The position numbers and the translations under genes are program-made. A DNA stretch of 64,000 bases from a plasmid: the sequence record CP071152.1; one strand, written 5' to 3'. Positions 38,713 through 54,638 of the stretch are shown here, piece after piece. The notes beneath the pieces are model-generated. The model made no database searches, was not told the origin of the DNA, and saw nothing but the letters and a program-made list of their open reading frames with translations. Within the stretch, counting starts at the first letter, position 1. The number at the start of each line of letters is the position of its first letter.

Positions 38713-38866
38713 ACCCCAGAGCCGTCGCTCCCACGGGCAGGCCACGGGTTCCTTCAAGGACTGGCAGATGAGTAGCCATGTTCGCAGTCTAGCGGCATGG
38801 TCTGACAGGTTGCGGTGTGGGCGAACGCCCTCTGTGCCGGTGAGCAAGATTTGGATTAGGTAACCG

Positions 38867-39781
38867 TCAAATAAGCGGTAGAGACACCTCACCTACCTCG
38901 ACAAGCGATCCGTTCTCCCACGGTATGACGGCCACCTGCCGGTCTTTGACTATCTGGATGTAGCCGCCTTGAATTTTGTCGATGTCACGGGCTGAGAAAC
39001 CGACCAGCGATATATAGGGGGAGCCGCCTCTCAGGAACTTCTTTACCTTTGCATATTCGTCCTTTCCCGTGGCGATGAAATAGATGTGCTCGCCTTCGGT
39101 CACCATGTCAGGGGAGTCAGGGTTTTGCGTGTATTTGCACACGAGGTCGATGTCACCCACATCAGGAGCAGTGGTGATGAGGCTGCCGTAGAGCCACACA
39201 TCCTGAACCCAGACGTATGGCTCGCAGGCATTCCACTCCTCCACCCGCTCAAGGAACTCTTCGAGCTTTTGCACTGCCTTGGCCCGAGGCAATCGCTTGA
39301 TGAGCTTGTGGCGACTCAGCTCAGCGCCTTTGGCTGTTACCTGATACCAAGCAAAGCCATTGTGATCGGTTATTCCCATCACTGTGAGATAACCCTCATC
39401 AAGCATTTTCTGGATGAGGTCGGGCGCGAGGGCAACCGCATTGGGATTCAGTTCGGTCAGGGAATACCCCATACCGCATCGCTGCTTCTCCTTGGTCAAC
39501 ACTATCTCGCCAATGGAGCGAACCTCCGTGACATAGTTTATGTCGTCGGTAGGGTACATCTGAGCGTAGTGGCGCAACCGCTTCACCAGATCGCGACCTG
39601 TCTTGAGGTCGAGCCCGAAAATTTTGCTCTTGGGGTCAATCGTCAGTCCCATGATCTCACCTGCTGTGGGATGAAAAGTCATAAAGTTATTCCCCCCAAC
39701 TAGGGATACATCGTAGAGGCTTCCAAGTTGTAATTTCCATTGAATGCCCCTCTTTCCGGGGCTTTTCTTGACCTTAATCAT
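38867..39781 (-). CDS. Fusion protein: unknown N-terminal domain + winged-helix + minimal nucleotidyltransferase (Pol-beta superfamily)
   Basis: The wHTH-like segment reads LIQKMLDEGYLTVMGITDHNGFAWYQVTAKGAEL. The NTase motif is YGSLITTAPDVGDIDLV (hG[GS]-x9-DhD). Confidence 0.5.
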   Translation of the reverse strand: MIKVKKSPGKRGIQWKLQLGSLYDVSLVGGNNFMTFHPTAGEIMGLTIDPKSKIFGLDLKTGRDLVKRLRHYAQMYPTDDINYVTEVRSIGEIVLTKEKQRCGMGYSLTELNPNAVALAPDLIQKMLDEGYLTVMGITDHNGFAWYQVTAKGAELSRHKLIKRLPRAKAVQKLEEFLERVEEWNACEPYVWVQDVWLYGSLITTAPDVGDIDLVCKYTQNPDSPDMVTEGEHIYFIATGKDEYAKVKKFLRGGSPYISLVGFSARDIDKIQGGYIQIVKDRQVAVIPWENGSLVEVGEVSLPLI

Positions 39782-39999
39782 CGAGAAGCTACTCCATAAT
39801 TAAACATTTCATGTAGGGACAATGTGACGATAGATTGTAGTGTAAGCAGGGCAAGCAGCTGGCTTTCCATGAAAGCTGAGTAGCTTGAGCAGAGGGGGCA
39901 AAATGCTGATGTTCGAGGAAGCTGAACTACACCGACGGTGTGCATTCTCGTCCAATAGACTACTGATGTGGCTTGCCACCTTTTTAAAGTTGTGACCAC

Positions 40000-41433
40000 T
40001 TGATTACGTTACTTGGGGAGATAGGTGATGGAATGTTCGTAACTGTCAAAGCCCGTGTTTATACCGATGTCACGGGTGCCTACACTGAGCTCCCCGCCTT
40101 GCTGACGCCGGCGGGAGTGCTGGAGTCGTTGCTTGACTACTGCCTCTATCGCAGCCACGACCGCAGTCTCACCTGGATGTCGAAGGTGAGCCGCTCTGTG
40201 CGGATGTTTCTTGAATATCTCCAGACCAACCCTGCCGAGCGTGATACCTACCACCTGTTCCAGAATTTCGCTCAGCGGCTCTACTCCGGCACCTTCGACC
40301 GTGAGATAGGGCTCGACCCCAGCGGGCTCTGCTGGGCGCCGCGGTCGCCGCAGGACGCCTCACACATCATCACCCACCTATCCGACTTCTTCGACTGGTT
40401 GGGCGAAATGCGTCCCGCATCGGCACAGGTCAATCCGCGCTACGCCGGTGGAGCTTTCGACCGGCAAACCGATGAAGCTGCCTACCAGTATCGGCGCAGC
40501 AAAGCGTTCTTAGGACATACCTGGGCGGCCAATGCGTCACCGAGCCAGACCAGGCATCGAATTAGAGGGCGGCGTCTGCCTAAGGTTGAACGCGGCGAGC
40601 CGCCAGCCTTTCCGGAGGCGCGTTTCGAGGAGCTCCTGGTTAAGGGATTCTGTGCTGCCGGACGCCAGGATTATCGGGGCATGCTTATCACCTTGTTATT
40701 GCACGGAGCTGGCTTCCGAGAGTCGGAGCCTTTCCACCTGTACATTCAGGATGTGTTGCCTGACCCTGCCAACCCAAATCAGGCCCTGGTTCGCATCCAC
40801 CATCCAAGTCATGGTGCTGCGCCAGCTGATTGGCGTGACGCGCAAGGACGCCCCCGCAAGGGCAATCGGGCGGAGTACCTCTCCCAGCAGTTTGGTCTGG
40901 CCCCTCGCACAGATCTTCTAGACCGTCGTCATGCTGGCTGGAAAGGCGGCATGCATGATGGGGCCTATTACAAGCAGGCGTACTGGCTCCTGCCGGAGTA
41001 TGGCGAGTGGTTTCTACAGCTGTGGCACCGCTATCTGGAGCAGGTGGCTCGCAGTGAACGCGGCCATCCCTTTGCTTTCATCAATCTCGTCCGCGAGCCT
41101 GTCGGTGCCATGTGCACACTCAACCAGTACAACAAGGCCCATGCAGCTGCCTGCGAACGTATCGGCCTCACGGTGAGCAAAGCTCTGGGTACAACGCCGC
41201 ATGGCCACCGCCACGCCTACGGTCGCCGACTCATGAACGCCGGTATCGACAAGGCTCTTATCCGTCGCTTTATGCATCACGCCTCCCTGGATAGTCAGGA
41301 GGTCTACACGCAAGCGAATAGCCGCGAGGCCTTGGCTGCATTGGATGTGGCTGCGCAGCGGCTACGAGGCGCGAAGGTGGGAGCTGCCGCTACGCCGAGC
41401 CTGTTGCCCGCGGACATCTTATTGAATGACTGA
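40000..41433 (+). CDS. Tyrosine recombinase, Tn554 TnpA-like (first of two tandem recombinases)
   Basis: Catalytic HGHRHAYGRRL (HxxR) and EVYTQ (Tyr) motifs lie near the C-terminus. TTG start at 40000; alternative ATG at 40033. Confidence 0.6.
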   Translation: MITLLGEIGDGMFVTVKARVYTDVTGAYTELPALLTPAGVLESLLDYCLYRSHDRSLTWMSKVSRSVRMFLEYLQTNPAERDTYHLFQNFAQRLYSGTFDREIGLDPSGLCWAPRSPQDASHIITHLSDFFDWLGEMRPASAQVNPRYAGGAFDRQTDEAAYQYRRSKAFLGHTWAANASPSQTRHRIRGRRLPKVERGEPPAFPEARFEELLVKGFCAAGRQDYRGMLITLLLHGAGFRESEPFHLYIQDVLPDPANPNQALVRIHHPSHGAAPADWRDAQGRPRKGNRAEYLSQQFGLAPRTDLLDRRHAGWKGGMHDGAYYKQAYWLLPEYGEWFLQLWHRYLEQVARSERGHPFAFINLVREPVGAMCTLNQYNKAHAAACERIGLTVSKALGTTPHGHRHAYGRRLMNAGIDKALIRRFMHHASLDSQEVYTQANSREALAALDVAAQRLRGAKVGAAATPSLLPADILLND

Positions 41434-41442
41434 GGATTTGCC

Positions 41443-44040
41443 ATGCCCAATAAGAAGAAAACAACTGCGGCCAGTGTATCTACGCGCCCTGTAACAAGGA
41501 AACCAGGGGTAAAGCGCGTCACGGACACATCCCTCGGCTGGGTTTCACGGGAATATCCGCAGCTCGAACCCTGGCGCATCCTTGCGATGGAGTGGCTAAA
41601 AGGGGAAACTCGCGGGGTCAGTTCGAGACTGCAAGCTCTATCGTCCTTTTTCGAGCGCTACCTTATCCAGCAGAGCCTACCGCTTGACCCGGCAGTGCTG
41701 CTGACGCGCGGCACGGTTCTGCCGGACTATTACCAGACCGCCTGCCCAGATTCGAGGGCTGGCATCACGTACAACAACTGCATCAACTCCTTCCTGCACT
41801 TTGTGCTGCTACGTGAGTTCAGTGTGCCCGGTGATGACGGTCAGCCGGTCATTTCGCAGGCCTTCCGGAACCCAGTGCTCTGGATGTCTAAGGGCGGCTT
41901 GCCTTGGCGCGACGAGAGCGTGCATTCGCCACTACCCTACGGCTACATTGATGAACTGCGCCAGATGTTGGCGGCGGGACCACACTTCCGGGACTGGTTG
42001 TGGGCACAAAACGCATTGGGTGCAGAAATTGGTCAGCGGGGACCCGGCGCTCCTGACTGGTTCGAGGTAACCGAAGCGCAGATTGACCGGAACGACCCGG
42101 ATTGCGTCTGGCGTGAACGCCCAATGCGGAACGGGGCGCGCCTGGAAATGTGGAGCCCGGTGCGCTGGGTCGCACTACTGGTGAAGCTCATACTGCCACT
42201 GCGTACTTCTCAGGTCCGCATGCTCGACTCAGGCGAGGCGGATACCTGGCGCTACGCAGACGGCGTGTGGGCATTGAACCCAAGCCGAATCGCACACGGT
42301 AGTGAGCGGCGCCCACTACACCAGGGGGTGTTTCGCCGTAGCGCCGCTCTGGCTGATGGCGAGGCGGTTTCGACTGTGCTCTACATCAACACTAACAAGA
42401 CCGCCGATATCACCAAGTCAGGCCCCGAGAAAGGCTATGTCCTACCTTGGTCCTCCGGCGGCCCGGCGCATCAGGATGTGTTCTACTGGCTGGAAAAACA
42501 GCGTAACTGGCAGGAAAAATACAATCCGGTATCGCGGCGTACATCTTGGTCTTCACTGGATGGACGCCACATCCAGGCGAAGAGCGAGGTGCAACTCGCA
42601 AGCTATCCGGATACTTGCTTCCTGTTCCGATCGCCGGAAGCCCGTGAGGGTGAACGTTATTTCCCACTTTCGGATAAAGTAATGTTCTCCAGTTGGTTTG
42701 CCCTGCTGGAAGCACTGGAATGGCGGCTAGCTGACCGAGGTGAGACTCATCGCAATGGCACGAAAATCCGCTTCCTTCCACCGCAAGAAGAGCGGCTCAG
42801 CTATCAAAGAACTCTCTTCCCCTTACACAGTCTGCGCGTCTCCCTCGTCACCGCGCTGGCCCTAGAAGGCCAAGTGCCGTTCCCTATCCTACAAAAGCTC
42901 GTCGGACACAGCCGCCTATTGATGACGCTGTACTACACCAAGCCCGGTGCAACACACATCCGCGACGTATTGCTCGGCGCTGCGGAACGGTTGGAGGCGG
43001 CCAAGGAAGAGGGCATTCAGACCTTCCTGCTAGACACCGAGTATGGGGTGCTCCTCGAACAGGCTATTTGTAACAGTGTGCCATCTCTGGCTGCCGCTAT
43101 TCCGCAACATCCCGCTGCACGTAACCCCGTGGGCTGGATGCCGATGCACCACGGTCTGTGCCTGGTCGGTGGCAACACCAGCGAAGGGGGAGACAATGGA
43201 GCTGTGGGCGGCTGCTACAACGGGGGCGCAATTATTATCAAGAGCACGACAAATGTTAACGCCAAATACGGGCCTGTCCCTGGCGGCAGTCGCAACTGTG
43301 TACGCTGTCGTTGGTTCGTAACTGCTCCGCAGCACCTACCAGCCTTGGCGGCCCACTTCAACACGCTGGCCTACCACTTCGACGAGACGCGCAACGCCTG
43401 CCTTGCCCGAGAAAACGACCTCCAGGCCCTGAAAAAGGACAGGGCTGAAGCAGAAGCGGCTGGCCAGTCATTCACCCGGCTAGATGCTGTCAGGCAAGCA
43501 GAGCGGCTTTGGGAGAGCACCATGAGGCGCTTTAGTGATTCGGCGGAAGACCTGGTTGCCTGCTGGCGGCTCATCGAGCGCTGCAAGGCTCTACTCGAAT
43601 CGCGCACTGGCGACAGCACGCAATTGGTGGCGGCTGGCACGTTATGCGATGTGCAGGCCGTCTTCGAGGAAACCGAGTCGGAGCTTCTGCAACTGGCTGG
43701 TGTCTGTGAGAGCGTCGAACTCTATCCAGACCTAGAGCCAGGCAAGGCGGTGTTTCGACGCAGCCAGTTGCTGGATACCGTCCTCTACCGCGACAAGTTG
43801 CCTCCTGTGTTCATGCTGCTGAGCGAACAGGAACAACTCCTCGCTGGTAACGCCTTTATGCGCCACCTAGCGCAGCAGATGAACCCGTCGAATCCGGCGA
43901 TCGGCCAACGTGAAGTTATTCGTCTGATGGATGCCGGTGAGCGTCTCAGTGCATACCTAGATCTCAACCTTGCAGCGCAGTTGCCTACATCCCGTCACAC
44001 CGCCGCGTTCCGGTCCGGGCCGACCCTGAAATGGAATTAA
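41443..44040 (+). CDS. Large tyrosine recombinase, Tn554 TnpB-like (865 aa)
   Basis: PLHSLRVSL (HxxR) and VGHSRLLMTLYYTK (catalytic Tyr) motifs. It starts 10 bp after the first recombinase. Confidence 0.55.
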   Translation: MPNKKKTTAASVSTRPVTRKPGVKRVTDTSLGWVSREYPQLEPWRILAMEWLKGETRGVSSRLQALSSFFERYLIQQSLPLDPAVLLTRGTVLPDYYQTACPDSRAGITYNNCINSFLHFVLLREFSVPGDDGQPVISQAFRNPVLWMSKGGLPWRDESVHSPLPYGYIDELRQMLAAGPHFRDWLWAQNALGAEIGQRGPGAPDWFEVTEAQIDRNDPDCVWRERPMRNGARLEMWSPVRWVALLVKLILPLRTSQVRMLDSGEADTWRYADGVWALNPSRIAHGSERRPLHQGVFRRSAALADGEAVSTVLYINTNKTADITKSGPEKGYVLPWSSGGPAHQDVFYWLEKQRNWQEKYNPVSRRTSWSSLDGRHIQAKSEVQLASYPDTCFLFRSPEAREGERYFPLSDKVMFSSWFALLEALEWRLADRGETHRNGTKIRFLPPQEERLSYQRTLFPLHSLRVSLVTALALEGQVPFPILQKLVGHSRLLMTLYYTKPGATHIRDVLLGAAERLEAAKEEGIQTFLLDTEYGVLLEQAICNSVPSLAAAIPQHPAARNPVGWMPMHHGLCLVGGNTSEGGDNGAVGGCYNGGAIIIKSTTNVNAKYGPVPGGSRNCVRCRWFVTAPQHLPALAAHFNTLAYHFDETRNACLARENDLQALKKDRAEAEAAGQSFTRLDAVRQAERLWESTMRRFSDSAEDLVACWRLIERCKALLESRTGDSTQLVAAGTLCDVQAVFEETESELLQLAGVCESVELYPDLEPGKAVFRRSQLLDTVLYRDKLPPVFMLLSEQEQLLAGNAFMRHLAQQMNPSNPAIGQREVIRLMDAGERLSAYLDLNLAAQLPTSRHTAAFRSGPTLKWN

Positions 44041-44702
44041 TCATGAGTAAAACAACAGATATTCACCCTGACGTCGTGTTGGAGTCGCTGCTTGCCAAGG
44101 CTGAGCGCTCGAACCGTCGAAACAACCTCATCAAGATGCATGAACTGTGTCGCAAGCAGCACGAGGTTGGGTCGCGTGACTTCTCCGTGTCAACCATCGG
44201 CCGTCTGGCTGAGGCCGATGGCATCATGAAAGGCCGTGCGCTCTACAACACCCAATCCGCCGACTACAAGGCTCTCATAGAGGTCTGGGCTGCTTACGCA
44301 GGTCCACCTGCCCCCAAGCCCACCAAGACGCTGGCCAGCCACGACTACCTGATGCGCATCGATGATCCGGCCATTCGTTCTATCATGCAGGCCATCGTCA
44401 CAGAGCGTGACAAACTCAAGGCGCAGCTCAACACCCTCAAGGCACACACACTGGTGAACGTGGACCGGCGGCCGTTAGGGGCAACTGTCACGTCCGCGAC
44501 TGGCACGCCGGTGGTTGTGCTTAAATTGTCCGCACAACTGACTCCATCTGAACGCGAGGCACTACAGAAAGCGGTGTCAGCAGACTACCTCGAAGATCGG
44601 GGTTTGAAGGAAGGCAGCCACGGTGAAATCGTTAACGAGCGCGGTCGCACAATATTCGAGGTTGGCTTTGCTTGGGCAATTCGCAAGGTGTTGGGTGACT
44701 GA
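44031..44702 (+). CDS. Tn554 TnpC-like small third protein (223 aa)
   Basis: Its start overlaps the TnpB-like stop. It is the last GC-rich gene before the AT-rich cargo. Confidence 0.4.
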   Translation: MELIMSKTTDIHPDVVLESLLAKAERSNRRNNLIKMHELCRKQHEVGSRDFSVSTIGRLAEADGIMKGRALYNTQSADYKALIEVWAAYAGPPAPKPTKTLASHDYLMRIDDPAIRSIMQAIVTERDKLKAQLNTLKAHTLVNVDRRPLGATVTSATGTPVVVLKLSAQLTPSEREALQKAVSADYLEDRGLKEGSHGEIVNERGRTIFEVGFAWAIRKVLGD

Positions 44703-45044
44703 CCCTTTGTGGGAGAGCAATAGATAATCATATTGAGAATTAAAGTACCATACTAAAATGGCAGTGCTCTCATCGGTACGCTGCCTTTTCTAAAACGTTC
44801 ATACCCCAAAACCATTCAGAGAAAATACTCATTCATTACCTGTTAGTGTGACTTTACCTTATAAAAGGTGATCTGAAAGTGTGTAGTGGGTTTCTGTCGT
44901 ATTAGATGGTTTGACTGCATTCTAATTCATGGGCTTTTGATTCAAGTGATGGAATAATTGTAAATTGCAAGCATATGAAATATGGCGCATCATGTGTGTG
45001 GAAGGTTACTCTGCGCCGTATAGGTAGGCATACAAAACTGGAGA

Positions 45045-46100
45045 GTGCTAATGCTTGTAAAGTATTATGGTTTGGTTTTCGTTCATAGAACCAATCGTTG
45101 GTCACCAAGAGTAGAATTTATATCAAACGGTTTATTTCGCATGACTCAGCCTAAATACCTTAATGATAAAGGGAGCGAGGCGAGACTATGGCCATATTTT
45201 AATGAGTTTTCACCTGCAGATTATGCATGGGCCAAAAAAGAACATGATAAAATGCAAACCGATCCTTCCTATGTCCCATCAAATGAAGAATTAGAAAACT
45301 TCTTTCTAAAACCGTGTGGCTCGCGCTATGGAGACCATTTCCCGCATATGCTAGATCAAGAAGGCTTCAACTCAATGGAAGATTATGATCGGGAGCAATT
45401 GACTCAAGCGGCTGAAAGAGTCAACTCATTTTTAGTGGAGGCATTAAGCTGCCAGTTAGGCATTTTATCTCTTTCAAAGTCTGACACAAATGAACTTATG
45501 TGGACATATTATGCTAGCGAAGGTAAGGGACTAGCTGTTACTTTCAATGAGAATCATGCATTTTTCAACCAGCTTCCCCCGAAAGATGTTAGTTATACTC
45601 CAGATAAAAGAGCTTCTCTTACATATTATAAAGGTATGATACGAATAAATGGTGCTCCGATAAAAAGCTTCCATGCTGCAGATTTAGGTAATCCATTAGG
45701 AGTTATGCGCTCTCTTAGTAGCAATGGTATTGATATAGTTGATTTTTCGGATCGACTGCTATATTCGAAAGCCAAACAATGGTCTTTTGAAGATGAGACT
45801 AGAATTGTATGCCCCCTTATGTTATGTGAAGAGAAAGTAGGGCCACTAGTACAACCAGACTTTGGAGTTGAATTACCTAATGAACTCTCCCCAATGTTCA
45901 AGAGCTACTCTGAGGTCAATCTAAAACGAATACCATTCGAGGCATTTGAGTCTATCATTTTTGGTTACAGTATGAGTGAATTAGACAAGTCTACTATCAC
46001 TGAACTGGTAAGGAAAAATGAAAACTTGTCCCATATAAAGTTACGCATAGCCAAACACAATATTTATGGCAACATTGAGATCAATGATCTCGTTGTGTAA
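45045..46100 (+). CDS. DUF2971-like protein (AT-rich cargo gene 1)
   Basis: 351 aa; about 38% GC against about 60% in the flanks. General DUF2971-like composition with no catalytic motif recognised. Confidence 0.35.
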   Translation: MLMLVKYYGLVFVHRTNRWSPRVEFISNGLFRMTQPKYLNDKGSEARLWPYFNEFSPADYAWAKKEHDKMQTDPSYVPSNEELENFFLKPCGSRYGDHFPHMLDQEGFNSMEDYDREQLTQAAERVNSFLVEALSCQLGILSLSKSDTNELMWTYYASEGKGLAVTFNENHAFFNQLPPKDVSYTPDKRASLTYYKGMIRINGAPIKSFHAADLGNPLGVMRSLSSNGIDIVDFSDRLLYSKAKQWSFEDETRIVCPLMLCEEKVGPLVQPDFGVELPNELSPMFKSYSEVNLKRIPFEAFESIIFGYSMSELDKSTITELVRKNENLSHIKLRIAKHNIYGNIEINDLVV

Positions 46101-46142
46101 GATGCTACTTTATTAGCAGAAATTTATCATATTTGAGGTGCT

Positions 46143-47150
46143 ATGTTTTATATTTTCCTTGATACCTGTGTTCTTTTAGATATTTCAACAAAAAAATATG
46201 ACCTTCCTTTGGTTTCTGCACTGGAAGAGTTGGTTGCATCGGGTGTGATTACACTTATACTTACCGACCTAGTTGTGGAAGAGTACGAGAGGAATAAGGA
46301 AGACGTAGCAAACAAGACTGCCAAAAGGTTGTCTCAAGAATTTAAACAAGTAAAAGTAATAGTAAGTGAATTTGCAGGCGATAAAAAAGCGGACACAATA
46401 GACGTATTAAATGACATCAATGCGCGTTTACCCCTGCTAACTGATGCCAACTATGCGACCATTCACAGAGTTGAAAGGCTTATCGAATCAGCAAAAAAAA
46501 TCAGTATTAGTGAACGTTCTAAAATAGCCGCAGTTCAGCGGGGCCTAGATAAAAGAGCGCCATTTCACATTAGTAAAAACTCTGTAGCTGATGCGGTCAT
46601 CATCGAACAATTTTATGAGTTCTCGCAGGGTGTCGATAGTGAGTCTGGTTGTTGTTTTTTCATAACCCACAATCACAATGACTTTTCTGCAAAGGATCAC
46701 CGTCAACCACATTCTGATTTTGGTAATATTTTTAACGACACGAGTGTTCTTTATTTCAATAATCTAGCATCAGCAATTAATGAAATTGACGAGAATTTTT
46801 TAGATGGTATTGAATTTGAGTATGACCACACAGAGGAAACCAGAGGCCTAAGAGAAATCCTAGATGCGATGGACGAACTAGTTGACAAAGTTTGGTATAA
46901 CAGGCACCAGAATCGCATGTGGGCTATTGAAAATGGCGAGATCGAAATTGTTCCTGAGGGTACTGAACGTTATGGTAATAATGTCATTCACGAGAATATC
47001 CTTAAAGGTGCTATGAAGTCTGCAAAACGTGTTGAAGACACCTATGACAACGTAGGGCCTTGGAGCGACTTTGAGTGGGGTATGATTAATGGAAAATTGT
47101 CTGCATTACGTTGGGTGCTAGGTGATGAATGGGATATGTTAGACACCTAA
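46143..47150 (+). CDS. PIN-like domain protein (DUF4935-like), AT-rich cargo gene 2
   Basis: The N-terminus FLDTCVLLD is a PIN-type acidic motif. 335 aa. Confidence 0.4.
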   Translation: MFYIFLDTCVLLDISTKKYDLPLVSALEELVASGVITLILTDLVVEEYERNKEDVANKTAKRLSQEFKQVKVIVSEFAGDKKADTIDVLNDINARLPLLTDANYATIHRVERLIESAKKISISERSKIAAVQRGLDKRAPFHISKNSVADAVIIEQFYEFSQGVDSESGCCFFITHNHNDFSAKDHRQPHSDFGNIFNDTSVLYFNNLASAINEIDENFLDGIEFEYDHTEETRGLREILDAMDELVDKVWYNRHQNRMWAIENGEIEIVPEGTERYGNNVIHENILKGAMKSAKRVEDTYDNVGPWSDFEWGMINGKLSALRWVLGDEWDMLDT

Positions 47151-47779
47151 GATATACTGGATCAATAACTAACTAAGGCTTCAATATACATTTTCTCATC
47201 TGAGGGTAGCGCGCTAGATCTTTAGATCTAACGCATTTCTATCCAAAATCGAGTTATGCTGAGTATGATAATTTATTCCTCTCCCCCCACTCTGTGGAGC
47301 TTACGAAGATCAGACTGTAATGCAATTGCTGGATTAGAAGCTGATCACTCCCAGATTGGCAACACCACCCTACAGGCCTATCAGAAAAATTTCGCGTTCC
47401 TAGAAGGTCTTCCTCTGACCGACCCGCAACGAGTGTGTTTATTGGGCGTGCGGGCCGACACACGCCAAAAGTTCAGGGATAATCGGTAACGCAGCGCCAG
47501 AACCACTCATCTGTCAGCCAATTAAACCTTAATAGAGCGCAGGTCAAGTATCGGAGAGCTTATCTTGGAAGACCTGCTGCAGGTTATCCGCGAAGAGGCA
47601 GGCTTTTACTCGTTTGGTCAGTAGCTAAAAACCGGGCTTGGCTTTGTAAGGTGACAGAATAACCATCGCTGCGATCACATTCGTAGCAAACACCAAACGG
47701 TAAGCTCATCTGATCGTGACGAAGAACCATTGCATAATTATTTTTTCGAGTTGGACCTTGACAAGGAAAGTAGAAAAAG

Positions 47780-50377
47780 ATGTCTGAACCAGCGAATGAA
47801 ACAGCCGGAATGAATGATTTTGAAATGTGGTTGAACGACCGTAATGGTTGGCTTCAGACCGCAGCCAGACAACTCATCGACAACAAGAGGTTACCGAATG
47901 GGGGCGAGCTTGCAGAGCTGGTTCGACTTTGCAAACTGGAGGCCATCAAGCAGAGTGACCCTGGATTTCTGAAGGTGGCCCCAGGAGCATTATCTGCTGG
48001 CGCGGTACGACGGGTTGTGCGGGTCGAAGAAGTAACCCAAGTCTTCGGGGTTAACGCGATTAAGCATGGAGCATCTCTACCATTCGGAACGGGCAGTCTG
48101 ACGGTCATCTACGGGCAAAATGGTTCGGGGAAAAGTGGTTTTGCTCGTCTGCTCAAACAGCTGTGTGGATCTCGTTCACGGGACGAAATCCACCCCAACG
48201 TATTCAACGATAAAGAGCATGCTTGCAGTGCTCAATGCCGAATCACTATTGATGGCAATTCCCGAGATATCAATTGGCATCCTGGTGCAGAGCCCCATGC
48301 GATGCTCAAGTACGCCCAAGTATTTGATTCGAAGGCAGCAACTCAGTACATGGGGCGCACTGAGTCAAGCTATGAGCCGAGCAGCATGCGGTTCATCTCC
48401 ATGCTCATTCAAATTTCGGGCATGGTTTCTGATGAGCTGGGGCGGGAGAAGGGAAAGCTCGTTAGGGCACTTCCACAGTTCCCGGGTGATCTCTCAGAAA
48501 CCGCTGAGAAAGCCTGGTTCTCCTCTCTCAAAGCCTCCGTTTCTGCTGAGCAGGTCGAGGCGTATTGCCGGTATGGGAAAGATTTGGACGACGAGCGGGT
48601 CAAGGCTGAGGCTCTGCTTGCGGAAAAAGACATCGCGGGTCGCTTGGTTACCATTGGCAAGGAAAATGTTGCCACTGAAAGCATCAAGCAGGCAATGAAA
48701 CTGTTGAAAGAAGGTCTAACCGACGAGAAGGCTGATGAGTTGTCGAAGGCGAGAGTGTCGGCGGTTGCAGCGAGAAAGGCGGCCAACGAAGTTGCACAGC
48801 AGGCATTCGCGAATGTTCCTCTCCAAGGCGTGGGTGATACGGCCTGGAAACTTATGTGGGAGCAGGCGCGCGCCTATTCCGTTGCTCATGCATACCATGG
48901 TCACGAATTTCCCGTTACTTCAGACGGTGCGCACTGCGTGCTCTGTCAGCAAGAACTTACGGCTGAGGGCGCCACTCGGCTCAAAAGCTTCGAGGCTTTC
49001 GTCACCGCAGGTCTCGAGACTGCGGCGAAAACTGCGGAGGCCATCAGTTCGGCACTGATCGCGAAGGTAATTCAGGTGCCTTCGATTGAAGACTGGATTG
49101 CGCGCCTGGCTCAGTTGCAGTTCGACGAAGCCACGGCCCGTGCTTGGTATGAGTCGTTGAAGTCTAGGCGAGCACAGTTTGTGGCGTGCGCTGCCGTGGG
49201 AGATATCTCTGCGTTCGATTGGGTTCCTATCGATCAGGCACTGGAAAAACGAGCTGCCGACTTGCTTGCTGAGAAGACCAGCCTCGCCCAGCTGCAGCAA
49301 GATGGGCAGCGGCTGCAGGTCGAGAAGCGAGTGAAGCAACTCAAAGCACTTCAGTGGCTGTCCCAGAACAAACCTGCGATTCTCGCAGAGCGTGAGCGGC
49401 TAGTAGCTGTCGATCTTCTGGATAAAGCTACTAAGTTAACGGCCACCAATTCGTTGACAACCAAGCGCAACGAGCTTGGACGTACCGAGCTTGATGCTGG
49501 ATATCAGGCCCGCTTTGATGCGGAGTTGAAGTCCCTTGGTGGACGGCGGTTGCCAGTTGTGCCGCAGAGCAGGGCTCAAGGAAAGGGAGTTATCACATTT
49601 GGGCTCGCCCTTGTCGGTGCTCGGGCTGGCTTCACTCCTGATGTCGTACTCAGTGAAGGCGAAACCCGCATTGTTGCACTGGCGGCATTCCTGGCCGACA
49701 CAACTGGTTCGAACCAGCTTGCCCCCTTCATCTTTGACGACCCGATTTCGTCTTTAGATCAGGATTTCGAGGAGAGGGTTGTTACCCGGCTTGTCGAGTT
49801 GGCGAAGACCCGGCAGGTCATCATCTTCACTCACCGCCTCTCGTTGATTGCACTCGTTGAGGCTGTAATCAAAAAACACGGTGAGAATCCGGCTAACGAG
49901 AAAATTACCTACACCGTGCAGTCGCTTCGACGGCTGGATAAGGTTTCGGGAATTCTGGCGCAACACAGTCTGCGGGATGCCAAGCCCGATAAGGCACTTA
50001 ATGCGGTTAGAGATCACGTCATCCCGAGGCTCAAAAAACATCAGGCCGATGCCGACGCCGACGGTTATGACCTCACCGTGAAGAGCGCCTGCAGTGATTT
50101 CCGGATCATCTTGGAACGAACAGTGGAGCTCATCCTCTTGAATGACGTAGTTATTCGTTTCAGACGGGACGTCATGACTAAAGGAAAGCTGAGAGGTGTT
50201 GCCAAGGTGATGGCAGAGGACTGCGATTTTATCGACCGGTTAATGACCAAGTATTCAGTCTATGAGCACTCGCAGGCAGATGAGCTACCTCAGGTTCCGG
50301 TCGAACTCGATGAGTTCGAGCGAGATGTATTGGAACTCATTGCATGGATGGCTCAATTCAAGGAGCGATCAAGCTAG
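47780..50377 (+). CDS. RloC-like ABC/SMC-type ATPase with a coiled-coil CxxC zinc hook and a C-terminal putative nuclease region (865 aa)
   Basis: Walker A GQNGSGKSG near residue 115; HCVLCQQEL near residue 390 within predicted coiled coil; D-loop/H-loop IIFTHRLSL near residue 690; C-terminal RFRRD ... YEHSQ. Confidence 0.5.
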   Translation: MSEPANETAGMNDFEMWLNDRNGWLQTAARQLIDNKRLPNGGELAELVRLCKLEAIKQSDPGFLKVAPGALSAGAVRRVVRVEEVTQVFGVNAIKHGASLPFGTGSLTVIYGQNGSGKSGFARLLKQLCGSRSRDEIHPNVFNDKEHACSAQCRITIDGNSRDINWHPGAEPHAMLKYAQVFDSKAATQYMGRTESSYEPSSMRFISMLIQISGMVSDELGREKGKLVRALPQFPGDLSETAEKAWFSSLKASVSAEQVEAYCRYGKDLDDERVKAEALLAEKDIAGRLVTIGKENVATESIKQAMKLLKEGLTDEKADELSKARVSAVAARKAANEVAQQAFANVPLQGVGDTAWKLMWEQARAYSVAHAYHGHEFPVTSDGAHCVLCQQELTAEGATRLKSFEAFVTAGLETAAKTAEAISSALIAKVIQVPSIEDWIARLAQLQFDEATARAWYESLKSRRAQFVACAAVGDISAFDWVPIDQALEKRAADLLAEKTSLAQLQQDGQRLQVEKRVKQLKALQWLSQNKPAILAERERLVAVDLLDKATKLTATNSLTTKRNELGRTELDAGYQARFDAELKSLGGRRLPVVPQSRAQGKGVITFGLALVGARAGFTPDVVLSEGETRIVALAAFLADTTGSNQLAPFIFDDPISSLDQDFEERVVTRLVELAKTRQVIIFTHRLSLIALVEAVIKKHGENPANEKITYTVQSLRRLDKVSGILAQHSLRDAKPDKALNAVRDHVIPRLKKHQADADADGYDLTVKSACSDFRIILERTVELILLNDVVIRFRRDVMTKGKLRGVAKVMAEDCDFIDRLMTKYSVYEHSQADELPQVPVELDEFERDVLELIAWMAQFKERSS

Positions 50378-50501
50378 ACGGAGTGATTTTGCTCAAGCAA
50401 AGGGGCCAGCGGCGTTTTTCAAGATAGTTGTCGCGCAAAGCTGTTTTAAGCAGCCTCTTTTTGCTCCGGCTCGGGTTTCTCGGGCCGCTCCGGATTTAGC
50501 A

Positions 50502-51714
50502 TCACGGCACCGATAGGTGTCCAGTCTCGCGTCTTGCCACTCCACCTCGCTGGGTGTTGTGCTCGGGCGGCCTGGTACACAGCATCCCGTTTCGCCAGCA
50601 GGGCTTTATCGTCACCCGATGCCGCTCGTTGGGTGTGACGAAGCGGATACGGCTATGCCGGTGCTCTTCGTTATACCAGGCCATAAAGTCGCGCACCCAC
50701 TCCCTGGCCGCTTCCAGACTGGCAAAGCCGTCTGATGGCCACTGCGGACAGTACTTCAGCGTCCTGAACAATGACTCCGAGTACGGATTATCGTTGCTGA
50801 CCCGAGGCCGTCCCCCGCGAGGGCGTGACACCCAGGTCATGCATCTTGGTCAGCAGCGTGACTGACTTCATTGGCGCGCCGTTGTCCGAGTGCAAGACCA
50901 GCGGCTGCTTCCAGCACTGCTCGCGGATGATGCTCCGTTGCAGCAACGCCGCCGCCCGTTCACCGCACTCTTGCTCATGCACTTCCCAGCCCACCCCTTT
51001 GCGGCTGTAGATGTCCTCTATCAGATAGAGGTAGTAATACTGGCCGCGCACGAGTGACGGCAAGTAGGTGATATCCCAGGACCACACTTGATTGGGCCCA
51101 GTCGCGGTATGGCTGGTTGGTACCGGCACATGACGCGGTGGCTGGCTCCGGCCACGCCTGTGCTGCTGGTCAGCCGCCCGCAAGATGCGATAGAAGCTCG
51201 ACTCACTGGCCAAGTAGCGCCCCTGGTCGGCCAGCCGTGGCACAATTTGACTCGGCGGCAACGAGGCGAACTCCTGGCTATTGCAGACGTCCAGCACGGC
51301 CTGCCGCTCCTCTGGGCTCAATGCATGAGCAGGTATGGAACGAACCGCATCCGGTCGCCTATCGGCACTCAGCTCAGGGCCGGCCAACCAGCGCTGGAGC
51401 GTGCGCAGACTCAGCCCCAACACCTCGGCCGCAGGATGCTTGCGGGCGCCAGCTTCAAGCGCTTCGCGCCACCATGCAACGTATTGCTGCCGCTCTGGCA
51501 ACGAGGTCAGTTGTCCTCGTCGACGTTGCTCCAGTAGGCATCGAGCTTTTTTTGCAATATCAGCAGAGCTGCCGCCTCGGCCAGGGCCTTGTCTTTGCGC
51601 CGCAGCTCTTGCTCCAGTTGCCGGATACGCTTCTTGTCCGCTTTGGCCTGTGCCTTCTCCGCCTGTTGTAAGGTACGAGCGGATTGCTGGCCCAGAATAC
51701 AGGCTTGGCGCCAT
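50502..51714 (-). pseudogene. IS3-family OrfB (DDE integrase core) with a +1 frameshift in a C5/G5 run at 50822..50826
   Basis: ORFs 50788..51714 (DITYLP ... LHSDNGAPMKS) and 50502..50840 (NPYSESLFRTLK) belong to one rve protein. Removing one G gives the contiguous GVTPSRGRPRVSNDNPYSE. Confidence 0.7.
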
Positions 51715-52007
51715 TGCTGGACTTGCTCGGGATAGAGACCCTTACGGCGGCAGTACTCACTGAGTTCAATCTCGGAAAGCGCAGCGGTTTCCAGCACGAC
51801 GGCGAACTTGGCCTCGGCGGGCCATTCATCGGTCAGTTTGTTGTCCCCGGGCACAGGAGACCCTCCGTCTTTGGCGTGTTTGCGCCAATTATACAGAGTG
51901 ACCTCGCTGATGTTTTCCTGCCGAGCCAACTCGGCCACCGACATATTGATGGGCGGCAGCAGCTTCTTGAGCAAAGCAGCCTTGCGCTCACTTGAATAAC
52001 GAGCCAT
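51507..52007 (-). CDS. IS3-family OrfA (HTH + leucine zipper) ending at an A-AAA-AAG slippery site
   Basis: MARYSSERKAALLKK ... ISEVTLYNWRKH; the C-terminus ...LILQKKLDAYW is encoded over CAAAAAAAGCTC. Confidence 0.75.
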   Translation of the reverse strand: MARYSSERKAALLKKLLPPINMSVAELARQENISEVTLYNWRKHAKDGGSPVPGDNKLTDEWPAEAKFAVVLETAALSEIELSEYCRRKGLYPEQVQQWRQACILGQQSARTLQQAEKAQAKADKKRIRQLEQELRRKDKALAEAAALLILQKKLDAYWSNVDEDN

Positions 52008-52384
52008 TCGACACTCTTTATCCGCCCCCGGTCTTCACATTTAGATTATTCAGATTAGGCGACAACTATTCTGACACCGGGGGCCAGTGATAACTAGATC
52101 TATATATGCGATACGGGCCGAGAAAAGCGCCGACAATGCCGTCGGCGCCTGAAAGTTATGATGTATTAAAATGCATTTTTACATATACAGATAAAGCGTA
52201 GGAAACTCTTTGGTAGCAAGTCTTCTGGCTGACATATCTCCTAACTATGCTCAATTAGGGTATAAGTTTCATCCTTGCAAATAAAGTGTCATCCCAACGG
52301 GATGAAAGCATTGAATTTGCTGGGCTGTAGCCGTTCTTACTGCTCAAATCACTACCCAGCTCAGGGTTCCACTGGCCAGTTCGA

Positions 52385-52570
52385 GCCACCCCGGTGTACT
52401 TGGCGCTTGGCCACCCCGGTTTACCTGTTGAGAGACATCTCAAATGCCGCGGTCAAAGTCCCCGAGGGAGATCCAGACGCCATGCCGGGAGTTTCAGCAC
52501 CGTCGGTTGACCTGGCCAGCACCGGTTTTGGGGATGAGTTCCGGGGTTGAGCAGCTGGTTGATTTCCACC
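52385..52570. repeat. Dispersed copy A of the GC-rich ~180-bp repeat family (same family as the 33.8-34.75 kb array)
   Basis: About 80% identical to 53640..53810 (GAGACATCTCA..TGCCGCGGTCA...GGGAGTTTCAGCAC/GCGTC.GTTGACCTGGCCAG...GAGYTCCGGGGTTGAGC). Confidence 0.7.
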
Positions 52571-52762
52571 AAGGACATCGGTGCTCGAGAGCGGACATAA
52601 GTACCCAGGTCAGCCTGCTGGCCACATCCCGGTACCAACCTACTCACGGAATTTGGCCTCTGTCGCAAATTCATCAAGAGGGCCCCTCTACTCATTGCGT
52701 GGCAGTGGGCAACGCGGGTACACATGAGTCGCCCACCACTGCGACCTACCAAGGACTGCGCT

Positions 52763-53521
52763 ATGACGATGTTTGTCTCCTACCCTTTCCGAGTCCCCGC
52801 CACCAATGCACCGCTGTACTGGCAGTCAGCCTATGAGCCGACCCATCGCTTCACCTATCTGCAATTTCATCCCGAACCGAACGAAGATGGAATTGAGATA
52901 GATGCCTCTTACGCTATGGAAGAGGATTTCTCGGTATCGGTCTTCAACGAACGCTATCAGGGCACCTCACTGTGCTTCCCGATAATCCCGAATGCCTCCC
53001 TGCCCAGCATCAAGGCGTTGGCCCACGACGCCAAGCTGGAGGCCATGCTACAGCGCATCAGCGATGCTTACCTTTCGGAGTTCCATGAAGGTCAGTGGAG
53101 GGGAAGTTTCCCCGGTCTGCCGGAGGGATTTGAGAAAGAGGTGATCGACCATCTGGCCGAGGTGCTATCGGAAGATGCGCTGAAAATAGTCCCAGCCAGC
53201 CAGTACGTCCGAGGTGGTAACCTGGAACTGTTTATTTTATGTGATCTGCTGTCCTTTGAGGACTATGCAGAAAAGCTGGTTCATCTGGCTGAGCATGAAG
53301 GGGTGCTCCTTGTGGGGGATGTGGTGGATGAAGTTGCCAAGTGGTGCGCCGAAGAGGTCGAATATGACATTGAGACGTACCTAGAACCAGACGAGACGCT
53401 GCACCTGTTGATCTTCCTCCTGAAACGGCATGACAAGGCGAAATACGGGTACCTGCTCGATCTCTTCAAAGCCCACTACCCCGAAGTAGAAGTGCCGTTG
53501 TTCGCTAAGACCTACTCATAG
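52763..53521 (+). CDS. Hypothetical protein (252 aa) flanked by the two dispersed repeat copies
   Basis: An AAGGA RBS lies 7 nt before ATG 52763. Coding-like composition with no motif recognised. Confidence 0.45.
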   Translation: MTMFVSYPFRVPATNAPLYWQSAYEPTHRFTYLQFHPEPNEDGIEIDASYAMEEDFSVSVFNERYQGTSLCFPIIPNASLPSIKALAHDAKLEAMLQRISDAYLSEFHEGQWRGSFPGLPEGFEKEVIDHLAEVLSEDALKIVPASQYVRGGNLELFILCDLLSFEDYAEKLVHLAEHEGVLLVGDVVDEVAKWCAEEVEYDIETYLEPDETLHLLIFLLKRHDKAKYGYLLDLFKAHYPEVEVPLFAKTYS

Positions 53522-53559
53522 GCACTCGTCGAAGGCCTGGCGACCCAGGTTACCTGGCG

Positions 53560-53830
53560 ACACGCCGGGCTGATCTGGTGATGGTTGTCCTCGGTGGAAT
53601 GCCACCTCCCGACGGCGGGCACGGGTCCGGCTGAGGAGGTTGGCCACCGCCGGTGTACCTGGTGAGGAGACATCTCAGTGCCGCGGTCATTGTCCTTCGT
53701 GCAACTCAAGAAGCCCTGCAGGGAGTTTCAGCAGCGTCAGTTGACCTGGCCAGTGCCCGTTTTTTGGATGAGCTCCGGGGTTGAGCGGCGGGTGGATGTC
53801 CCTCATTGGCCCTGAAAGTCCCAGATGTCA
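53560..53830. repeat. Dispersed copy B of the GC-rich repeat family
   Basis: See copy A. It also contains GGTTGTCCTCGGTGG and GGATGTCCCTCATTGG motif variants. Confidence 0.7.
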
Positions 53831-53947
53831 TGGGCAGCTGCGTGCGAGCTGCACCTGGCTGGGCCCGGCGACGCGGGATCCCGCCCCTCCCGGTCCTTCA
53901 AGGACAAATTGGTGGTCGGCCCGGCGCTCCAGTATCCGCCCACCTGG

Positions 53948-53986
53948 GTGCCGGTGCCGGTGCCGGTGCCGGTGCCGGTGCCGGTG
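53948..53986. repeat. Hexanucleotide microsatellite (GTGCCG) x6.5
   Basis: Perfect tandem GTGCCGGTGCCG... run. It lies in a region without a convincing ORF. Confidence 0.85.
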
Positions 53987-54350
53987 GACGATAGTCGACC
54001 TGTTGGTGGTTCGACATGCCGGTTGTCCGGCACCTCTTTGAAAATATGTGGGTCGCCGCGCAGAAATGATGATGAGTCTTGATTTACGTTGTCGCCGAAG
54101 CCGCGTCGCCGCGCCATATGAGGTCGAGTGACGCCGGTTGCCTCCGCCAGAATTTGATCCAGCTGTAAGGATTCGAAGATGAAAATCAAAGTGATCTGCG
54201 AGTACGCTTGGGAAGTAGTGAGATCGAAAAAGAGAGCACTCTTCACCGCTGAGATGTTTCGTAAACAGGGGTACGGACATTCCACCTTCCAGATCATGGA
54301 TGACGATGGTATGGTATGGGTAATCACAGGTATTACCTTGGAGTACCACC

Positions 54351-54638
54351 ATGCCCACACAATCCAAACCGGTCTCGATCAAACTCGACGCCGATACCCA
54401 GGAACGCATCAAACGCCTGGCAACCTCCCGCGAACGCTCAGCCCATTGGCTCATGCGCGAAGCCATCAGCCAGTATGTCGAGCGCGAAGAACTGCGCGAG
54501 ACCTTCCACCGCGACACTCTGGAGGCCTGGCAGGAGTTCCAGGAGACCGGCCAGTATGCCACCGCTCAAGATGTGGATCAGTGGCTAGCCTCTTGGGGCA
54601 CTGATGCCGAAGGAGCGCCTCCTGCATGCCACCAGTGA
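54351..54638 (+). CDS. Type II antitoxin, ParD/CopG-like RHH
   Basis: MPTQSKPVSIKLDADTQERIKRLATSRERSAHWLMREAISQYVERE is an RHH antitoxin N-terminus. It overlaps the toxin start by 13 bp. Confidence 0.7.
   Translation: MPTQSKPVSIKLDADTQERIKRLATSRERSAHWLMREAISQYVEREELRETFHRDTLEAWQEFQETGQYATAQDVDQWLASWGTDAEGAPPACHQ

Follow-up and report, generated by a model that had tools for sequence, protein, structure and literature searches.

What kind of mobile element lies around two adjacent tyrosine recombinase genes on a plasmid, where does it begin and end, and how might it move? The question is raised by positions 40,000 to 50,377 of a 64,000-nucleotide (nt) stretch of the plasmid record CP071152.1 (this whole stretch is the window, and positions refer to it), where an earlier sequence-only reading had proposed a Tn554-like recombinase trio mobilizing an AT-rich three-gene cargo. 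Taken as a whole, the locus is best explained by a Gamma-Mobile-Trio (GMT) island in a large MOBH Aeromonas resistance plasmid, spanning positions 39687 to 52267, and we put the probability of this reading at roughly 0.93. The island is 12,581 bp long (10,903 bp without the insertion sequence [IS] ISAs20), and its identity, ends, target, and cargo are established here. The earlier picture of a recombination module moving horizontally acquired cargo is upheld, in the form of a site-specific mobile island with acquired cargo. The short/long/small layout of the trio is borne out as well, but its family was wrong, as NCBIfam places it with GMT.

GMT islands were defined by Mahata et al. (bioRxiv 10.1101/2023.03.28.534373), with VPaI-6 of Vibrio parahaemolyticus as the type example. 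By that definition, the trio stands at the 5' border and the cargo is rich in defense systems and type VI secretion system effectors; insertion is into a naive site, usually one with an inverted repeat, and spread on plasmids occurs. The experiments, made with VPaI-6 and one other Vibrio island, gave a circular form, a need for all three genes, and copy-and-paste transfer (bioRxiv 10.1101/2023.03.28.534373). In the window, the trio is likewise co-oriented at the 5' border, with the cargo between it and the 3' border. Both the class and this very island are already known and catalogued: the copy in Aeromonas hydrophila plasmid pMCR5_045096 is row 188 in the datasets of the GMT paper (borders at record positions 134644 and 149474). 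The island as such therefore adds little.

The three core genes all lie on the plus strand. gmtY (40033..41433) encodes a tyrosine recombinase of 466 amino acids (aa) that scored 525 bits against NCBIfam model NF040693 (cutoff, 340) and matched PF00589 at 3.7e-9; its open reading frame (ORF1, 40000-41433) gives 477 aa from a TTG, and the ATG at 40033 is the likelier start. gmtZ (41443..44040) encodes a large integrase of 865 aa with 981 bits against NF047926 (cutoff, 600), with an Integrase_2 domain (PF13009, 1.7e-119) at the N terminus, the catalytic box in the middle, and a C-terminal half that is conserved and rich in Cys. The small third protein, GmtX (44043..44702; 219 aa), reached 234 bits against NF040692 (cutoff, 40). 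The sequence-only reading had described two consecutive ORFs of 477 and 865 aa with recombinase signatures and an overlapping third ORF of 223 aa. We found all of them at their coordinates, the third at 44031-44702, overlapping ORF2 and with its annotated start at 44043. The comparison with PF00589 that it had proposed put ORF1 above the Pfam gathering score (37 bits versus 27.1); ORF2 gave PF13009 and a weak, subthreshold Phage_integrase (PF00589) stretch at residues 461 to 501. A GmtZ profile run against PDB gave weak matches at the catalytic box to XerC-like 4A8E and to Tn1549 Int.

Every motif quoted from the two recombinases is present (HGHRHAYGRRL, EVYTQ, PLHSLRVSL, and GHSRLLMTLYYTK) and invariant among 22 to 23 relatives, as is the first catalytic Arg (GFRESE in GmtY and PLRTSQ in GmtZ). 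GmtY and GmtZ are two tyrosine recombinases, each with a complete R-H-R-H-Y set. GmtX had no match in Pfam, nor among PDB sequences by single-sequence and profile searches; it was called StbA-like via HHpred in the GMT paper (bioRxiv 10.1101/2023.03.28.534373), which the present PDB searches neither confirm nor refute. Two sister plasmids, pK520-KPC and pMCR5_045096, are annotated with gmtY and gmtX. Residues ~540 to 850 of GmtZ (window 43000-44000) carry no Pfam domain and are strongly conserved; the Cys motifs there (GGCYNGG, RNCVRCRWFVT, and ACWRLIERCK) look like metal-binding sites.

All three core genes were assigned by NCBIfam to GMT equivalogs (NF040693, NF047926, and NF040692), and no Tn554 model was matched. 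Because these curated models name GmtY, GmtZ, and GmtX, we place the element in the GMT class and not in the Tn554 family in the strict sense. A strict Tn554 transposon, with TnpA/B/C homologues, one att site, and one orientation, would have the identical three-gene layout, and the junction footprint described below resembles that of Tn554-related elements (PMC10214605). We nevertheless regard this explanation as very improbable, given the NCBIfam result for all three proteins. The window proteins are also much larger than TnpA, TnpB, and TnpC of Tn554, which have 361, 630, and 125 aa. The hosts are Proteobacteria, as opposed to Staphylococcus and Enterococcus (PMC10214605 Table 1), and in a tblastn search of plasmids with GmtY, Staphylococcus was not among the ten commonest genera, which counts against Tn554 as well. 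The relatives occupy many sites (>25 different flanks) in proteobacterial hosts and in both orientations. The insertion in a single orientation that had been expected by analogy with Tn554 is contradicted by two of them (L041 and L058), which lie in opposite orientations within the same gene.

To what extent does the island have exact ends? With GmtY as the query, representative genomes yielded 59 related loci, mostly from Burkholderiales, at 41 to 91% identity (mostly 70 to 91%). Set against about 25 related islands and an empty site from a metagenome, the ends fall at 39687 (left) and 52267 (right), the left end being 346 bp upstream of gmtY; conserved termini next to unrelated flanks occur in about 30 loci. 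Similarity to Aeromonas salmonicida plasmid pA also stops at 52267. The left boundary had been expected in the gap at 39782..39999; it actually falls inside an annotated coding sequence (CDS) on the minus strand (38867-39781).

The empty site came from a search with a pattern of both flanks, which returned three metagenome contigs (L069, L070, and L071). Contig L071 is a true empty site, joining window 39605-39688 to 52264-54480 at 99.8% identity, and in L069 and L070, 9.8 and 13.4 kb of left flank run into the initial 90 bp of right-flank sequence. The sequence-only reading was to fail if homologous loci in relatives always contained the same genes in a fixed backbone context with no empty site; given L071, that refutation fails. 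The naive sequence reads ..CACCTGCTGTGGGATGAAAATAAAGTTTCATCCTTGCAAATAAAG.. and includes the palindrome GGATGAAA-N6-TTTCATCC. All three contigs read GGATGAAA-ATAAAG-TTTCATCC, a naive site with an inverted repeat of the kind that GMT islands use. The right half of the target lies at 52268..52353, with TTCATCC as the right palindrome arm, and is found in the three contigs and in plasmid pK520-MPH (L064).

Read on the minus strand, the palindrome overlaps an ATG (MKLYFHPT..) that opens the gene now ending at 38867. We considered the annotated 304-aa CDS (38867-39781, minus strand) as a native gene and rejected it: its first 32 codons are inside the left end of the island, and because its start lies within the island, the CDS is a chimera. 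It has a weak DUF6932 match. In the empty sites, the gene start is either within the palindrome or an ATG farther downstream that AGGTGA precedes.

A 90-bp patch covering the right half of the target (window 52264-52353; L064 6001-6090; L069 3760-3849 and 1627-1716) is a recurrent feature of Aeromonas plasmids, where it precedes different genes. It holds the GGATGAAA/TTTCATCC palindromes and the start codon (MKLYFHPT..), and in L069 a gene of ~2 kb lies between two copies. The patch looks like a shared promoter/operator cassette or a recombination hotspot. The copy in pK520-MPH was discarded as an empty site, as it has only ~100 bp in common with the window; the real one is L071.

The sequence-only reading had expected the inverted repeats to be absent, as in its picture of Tn554; the two ends are in fact imperfect terminal inverted repeats of ~27 bp with the common box AACTATGTAT. 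The left repeat (39687..39716, plus strand) has an outer and an inner box, TTATTCCCCCCAAC-N5-ATACATCGTA, and is kept in about 30 related loci with the consensus TTATTCCCCCCAAC-N5-ATACAT(A/C)GT. The right repeat (52243..52267, plus strand), AACTATGCTC-AAT-TAGGGTATAAGT, is kept in relatives up to the point where unrelated flanks begin (consensus, AACTATGTAY-N3-TTAGGGTATAAGT). Sixty base pairs inside the left end, a putative terminator-like hairpin, CCCCT-N5-(A/G)GGGG followed by a T run (39747..39766, plus strand), is found with conserved placement and form in the 21 left ends that were aligned. The right repeat is preceded by a right-end module (52120..52242, plus strand) of ~150 bp, kept in 21 relatives, in which a hairpin, GCGCCGAC-N6-GTCGGCGC, is followed by subterminal repeats of the CGATGYAT type. 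An Rfam scan of 38.5 to 53.5 kb gave no RNA family.

A subterminal repeat, TA(C/T)GATGTAT, occurs once near each end of the island in inverted orientation (39706-39715 and 52157-52166), and the right ends of the relatives have two direct copies and one inverted copy. The GATGTA inside this repeat is also the att554 core of Tn554, possibly by coincidence.

An IS3-family element had been noted past the ATPase gene and was thought to obscure the right boundary. The element is there, namely, ISAs20 (50410..52079, minus strand; NF033516, rve, and HTH_Tnp_1 match its ORFs), but the boundary is not obscured: the island resumes after it and ends at 52267, 188 bp farther on. ISAs20 is flanked by an 8-bp target duplication (50402-50409 and 52080-52087) and was inserted 32 bp past the stop codon of the ATPase gene, in the cargo zone upstream of the right-end module, which is untouched. 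Without ISAs20, the sister plasmids are collinear.

The borders given for this island in the GMT paper are wider than the conserved ends by 0.94 kb and 0.35 kb. They are too wide because the reference contig used there (Aeromonas caviae KLMC4) has a larger deletion, missing the flanks as well as the island. It lacks window 38746-52619, which includes the flanks 38746-39686 and 52268-52619, and at its junction, window 38740-38745 and 52620-52625 share the microhomology GGCCAC. The literature gains ends exact to the base and a real empty site for the island in the window, and these correct the published borders.

What does the island carry? The GC content is 0.56 to 0.61 in the trio, 0.36 to 0.40 at 44.75 to 47.25 kb, 0.45 to 0.47 over the next 600 bp, and 0.51 to 0.57 in the ATPase gene. 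The drop to ~38% that had been read across three genes is real, but it covers two AT-rich genes and a 630-bp spacer. The return described for the 865-aa ATPase gene is not a full one to host-like values, as the gene stays below the trio. The first cargo gene (45045..46100; GC, ~0.38) encodes a DUF2971 protein (PF11185, 8.8e-5; PADLOC PDC-S31, 7e-18), the second (46143..47150; GC, ~0.38) a PIN_12-domain protein (PF16289, 1.3e-28), and the third (47780..50377) an RloC-like AAA_13/SMC-like ATPase of 865 aa (PF13166 and PF02463; PADLOC PDC-S06, 1,117 bits), all on the plus strand. The ATPase has a Walker A motif, GQNGSGKS, and a CxxC within a long insert. Row 188 of Dataset S3 of the GMT paper flags one system, RloC (we found the column by counting and checked it against the VPaI-6 row). 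The cargo genes are candidate anti-phage genes with a putative defense function.

The ATPase gene on its own (window 47779-50351) is 94.7% identical to a gene of Pseudomonas aeruginosa plasmid pPAD8 (L065 9001-11573), where it directly follows a four-gene module (405, 504, 663, and 145 aa). The first two proteins of that module match PF00589 and the second matches NF041502, and the module looks GInt-like. Because it stands behind such a module in pPAD8, the ATPase gene appears as cargo of two different recombinase-island classes; that two unrelated classes carry one RloC-like defense gene is a second addition to the literature. This sharing, the similar general logic, and the occurrence of such elements in Aeromonas could also suggest that the window island is itself a GInt or a strand-biased circularizing element (SE). 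We give this explanation hardly any weight: those elements have four core genes, including a catalytically dead recombinase-fold protein, whereas the window has three, and the catalytic sets of both recombinases are full.

The 630-bp spacer between the second and third cargo genes (47151-47779) is of intermediate GC content and holds only a 77-aa ORF without a family match. It is probably a seam between cargo modules, because similarity to pPAD8 begins 1 nt before the ATPase start codon. The cargo is thus a mosaic whose modules, at least two in number, were acquired separately: the AT-rich DUF2971 and PIN_12 pair and the RloC-like ATPase, whose gene moves between island classes. The ATPase belongs to the cargo just as the AT-rich genes do, contrary to the original delimitation of the cargo to an AT-rich three-gene block. 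In cargo-less relatives of ~5.4 kb, the right-end module directly follows gmtX, from which it follows that cargo is held between gmtX and this module. Some relatives (L068 1229-6500; L026, L036, L037, and L055) have cargo between the left end and gmtY, either in addition to or in place of cargo after gmtX. In Burkholderia glumae (L068) this is an ars operon, and in the other four loci the left end lies 2.4 to 2.8 kb upstream of gmtY.

Is the island still mobile? The region is identical to that in two MOBH plasmids of ~240 kb, Aeromonas allosaccharophila pK520-KPC and A. hydrophila pMCR5_045096, both without the ISAs20 of the window. In pMCR5_045096, the IS21-family element ISAs27 cuts the 5' end of gmtY at window 40094 (L002 10096-12723), and because gmtY is interrupted, this copy is probably immobile. 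One could see the locus as a fixed remnant, GMT by descent but by now immobile within its plasmid lineage: three plasmids have it in identical form at one site, and an IS lies inside it in the window, besides ISAs27 in pMCR5_045096. This is a possibility to be kept in mind, although we think it unlikely. The window trio is full length with invariant catalytic residues, both termini are intact, and ISAs20 sits in the cargo region, upstream of the right-end module. Moreover, in A. salmonicida pA (L003) and another plasmid of that species (NZ_CP050188.1), the island is present at 99.95% identity from a point within gmtZ up to the same right end, with a different right flank, so that in pA it occupies another site; the left part has been lost to IS110 elements in both plasmids. 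A. caviae pKAM339_1 retains a 45-bp relic of the right end, and we count it and pA as insertions of this island independent of the one in the window.

Other members of the clade occur as near-identical copies. Loci L011 and L045 occupy two sites of one genome with 100% identity, L018 and L019, one on a chromosome and the other on a plasmid, share 99.7% identity, and the oppositely oriented L041 and L058 share 98.9%. The presence of identical copies at several sites points to recent activity of the clade and give indirect support for the transfer mode reported for GMT islands.

By analogy with VPaI-6, GmtY, GmtZ, and GmtX, encoded at the left border, would synapse the imperfect terminal inverted repeats, and the island would be copied out as a circle and inserted into a short target with an inverted repeat. 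The target here is GGATGAAA-N6-TTTCATCC, where a plasmid gene begins. The circle, dependence on the full trio, and copy-and-paste movement are extrapolated from the GMT paper.

The junctions are the sole part of this work that may exceed the literature. At the left junction, the empty site reads ..GGGATGAAAATAAAGTTTCATCC.. and the window reads ..GGGATGAAAAGTCATAAAG followed by the island. The 7 bases adjoining the left end, CATAAAG (39680..39686), are not contiguous in the empty site, and CATAAAG also adjoins the 99.95% identical pA copy, there at its right end. We compared such 7-mers across the clade. The left and right 7-mers of the same island matched at 6 or more of the 7 positions in 6 of 24 islands, versus 5 of 921 cross-locus pairs, and two further islands matched as 8-mers. 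Cross-locus matches at all 7 positions were found twice: the left 7-mer of L007 equals the right one of L009, and the left CATAAAG of the window equals the right 7-mer of pA.

Most relatives sit between the halves of terminator-like hairpins, a pattern also seen at the naive sites in the data of the GMT paper, and individual loci show what happens there. In Cupriavidus campinensis MJ1, the naive site reads ..CCGGCCGGTG followed by CGGGGCG.., and the occupied site reads ..GGTG, the island, and CCAATTG+CGGGGCG, that is, 7 foreign nt on the right and no duplication. In Cupriavidus metallidurans Ni-2, the island lies between CCACAAA and CCACAAG, the right 7-mer being a 6/7 copy of the left, and in B. 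glumae p68s4p, the island has CCACAAAT on both sides, a direct repeat of 8 bp copied from one target sequence. When 8 nt are taken out on the right side of L041 and L058, an ORF of 533 to 540 aa is restored that reads ..CFDTVCNMKKVAA.. in both, and the extra 8 nt correspond to the left flank in reverse complement. Such a pattern would be expected if each type had been the donor for the other in opposite orientation.

In this clade, then, one junction has 7 to 8 nt that either do not stem from the target or duplicate the target 7-mer of the opposite junction, from which we infer a coupling (overlap) sequence that is able to travel. A strict rule by which the left flank of the donor becomes the right junction of the recipient was dropped because the empty site shows the right flank of the window to be pure target. 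Reconstruction of the hairpins was mixed as well, favoring a foreign right 7-mer in eight loci and a foreign left one in four. The left flank of the window consists of the target prefix plus CATAAAG, 4 nt different from the naive allele, and could have arisen in two ways. CATAAAG could be a travelling 7-mer at the left, combined with a TAAA deletion; alternatively, the recipient allele could have had GTCA, with a crossover in a shared AAGT(T) core. As a general mechanism, a fixed shared core is ruled out by the relatives.

On balance, we lean slightly toward the view that this mainly betaproteobacterial GMT clade moves with a 7-nt coupling sequence from the donor flank, left at either junction. 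The circle junction would then read ...GGGTATAAGT + 7 nt + TTATTCCCC..., with CATAAAG or TTCATCC as the 7 nt; without a coupling sequence, it would join TAAGT directly to TTATTCC. Such a sequence may bias target choice to the centers of palindromes (terminator hairpins and operator-like repeats) with a similar 7-mer. If true, this would group GMT islands in mechanism with Tn554, SEs, and Tn916 and explain how "each system finds its own site," a point left open in the GMT paper.

Several points weigh against our overall interpretation. The junction of the window itself is ambiguous between a travelling 7-mer and a shared-core crossover. The GMT circle is described as lacking flanking repeats, and coupling sequences go unmentioned (bioRxiv 10.1101/2023.03.28.534373). 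The GMT islands used in experiments are only ~36% identical in GmtY, which makes the mechanism an extrapolation, and the mobility of the window copy is putative. PDC-S06, PDC-S31, and PIN_12 denote candidate defense genes only. The GMT assignment itself provides a clean case of such an island borne by MOBH plasmids in company with mcr-5 or KPC, linking putative phage-defense cargo to clinical resistance plasmids, and the junction data, as a third addition to the literature, suggest a coupling sequence like those of Tn554 and Tn916.

How does the island compare with known systems? Conjugative transposons of the Tn916/Tn1549 type use nonhomologous coupling (overlap) sequences of 6 to 7 bp, which are taken along from the flank of the donor and left at one junction or the other. 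Besides Xis, they possess one integrase, and they carry genes for conjugation, whereas the transfer mode reported for GMT islands is replicative (bioRxiv 10.1101/2023.03.28.534373).

GInts and SEs resemble GMT islands in being proteobacterial islands with several tyrosine-recombinase-fold proteins and a small protein, and the GInt-like module of pPAD8 and the window island have the ATPase cargo gene in common. SEs show copy-out behavior and 6-bp footprints and occur in Aeromonas (PMC10214605). GInts and SEs differ in having four core genes, with one recombinase-fold protein that lacks catalytic residues (PMC10214605), as opposed to three core genes and two catalytically complete recombinases in the window, and NCBIfam and BLAST put them in different families.

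Tn554 and the window island share three co-oriented genes (a short and a long tyrosine recombinase and a small protein), site-specific insertion, and termini in the form of imperfect inverted repeats (PMC10214605). In Tn554-related elements and SEs, a few bases of the donor flank reappear at the new junction as a 6-bp footprint (PMC10214605), compared with a candidate 7 to 8 nt here. Measured against a Tn554 pattern of carried donor bases and no target duplication, the relatives are mixed: C. campinensis has 7 foreign nt, C. metallidurans a 6/7 copy, and B. glumae an 8-bp repeat. In our clade, the travelling bases appear at either junction (on the right in C. campinensis and apparently on the left in the window). 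The larger proteins, many targets, both orientations, and proteobacterial hosts set the window type apart from Tn554, a separation drawn from these traits and the NCBIfam models. Tn554 is unmentioned in the GMT preprint (bioRxiv 10.1101/2023.03.28.534373).

The closest likeness is to the GMT islands of the VPaI-6 type, which have gmtY-gmtZ-gmtX at the 5' border and a downstream, defense-rich cargo that includes RloC, insert at sites with an inverted repeat, and occur on conjugative or mobilizable plasmids. The window GmtY is ~36% identical to theirs and belongs to a mainly betaproteobacterial clade, and the distance from the left end to gmtY is 346 bp, versus ~127 bp in the VPaI-6-type rows. 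The terminal inverted repeats and the 7- to 8-nt junction sequences seen here are undescribed in the GMT preprint.

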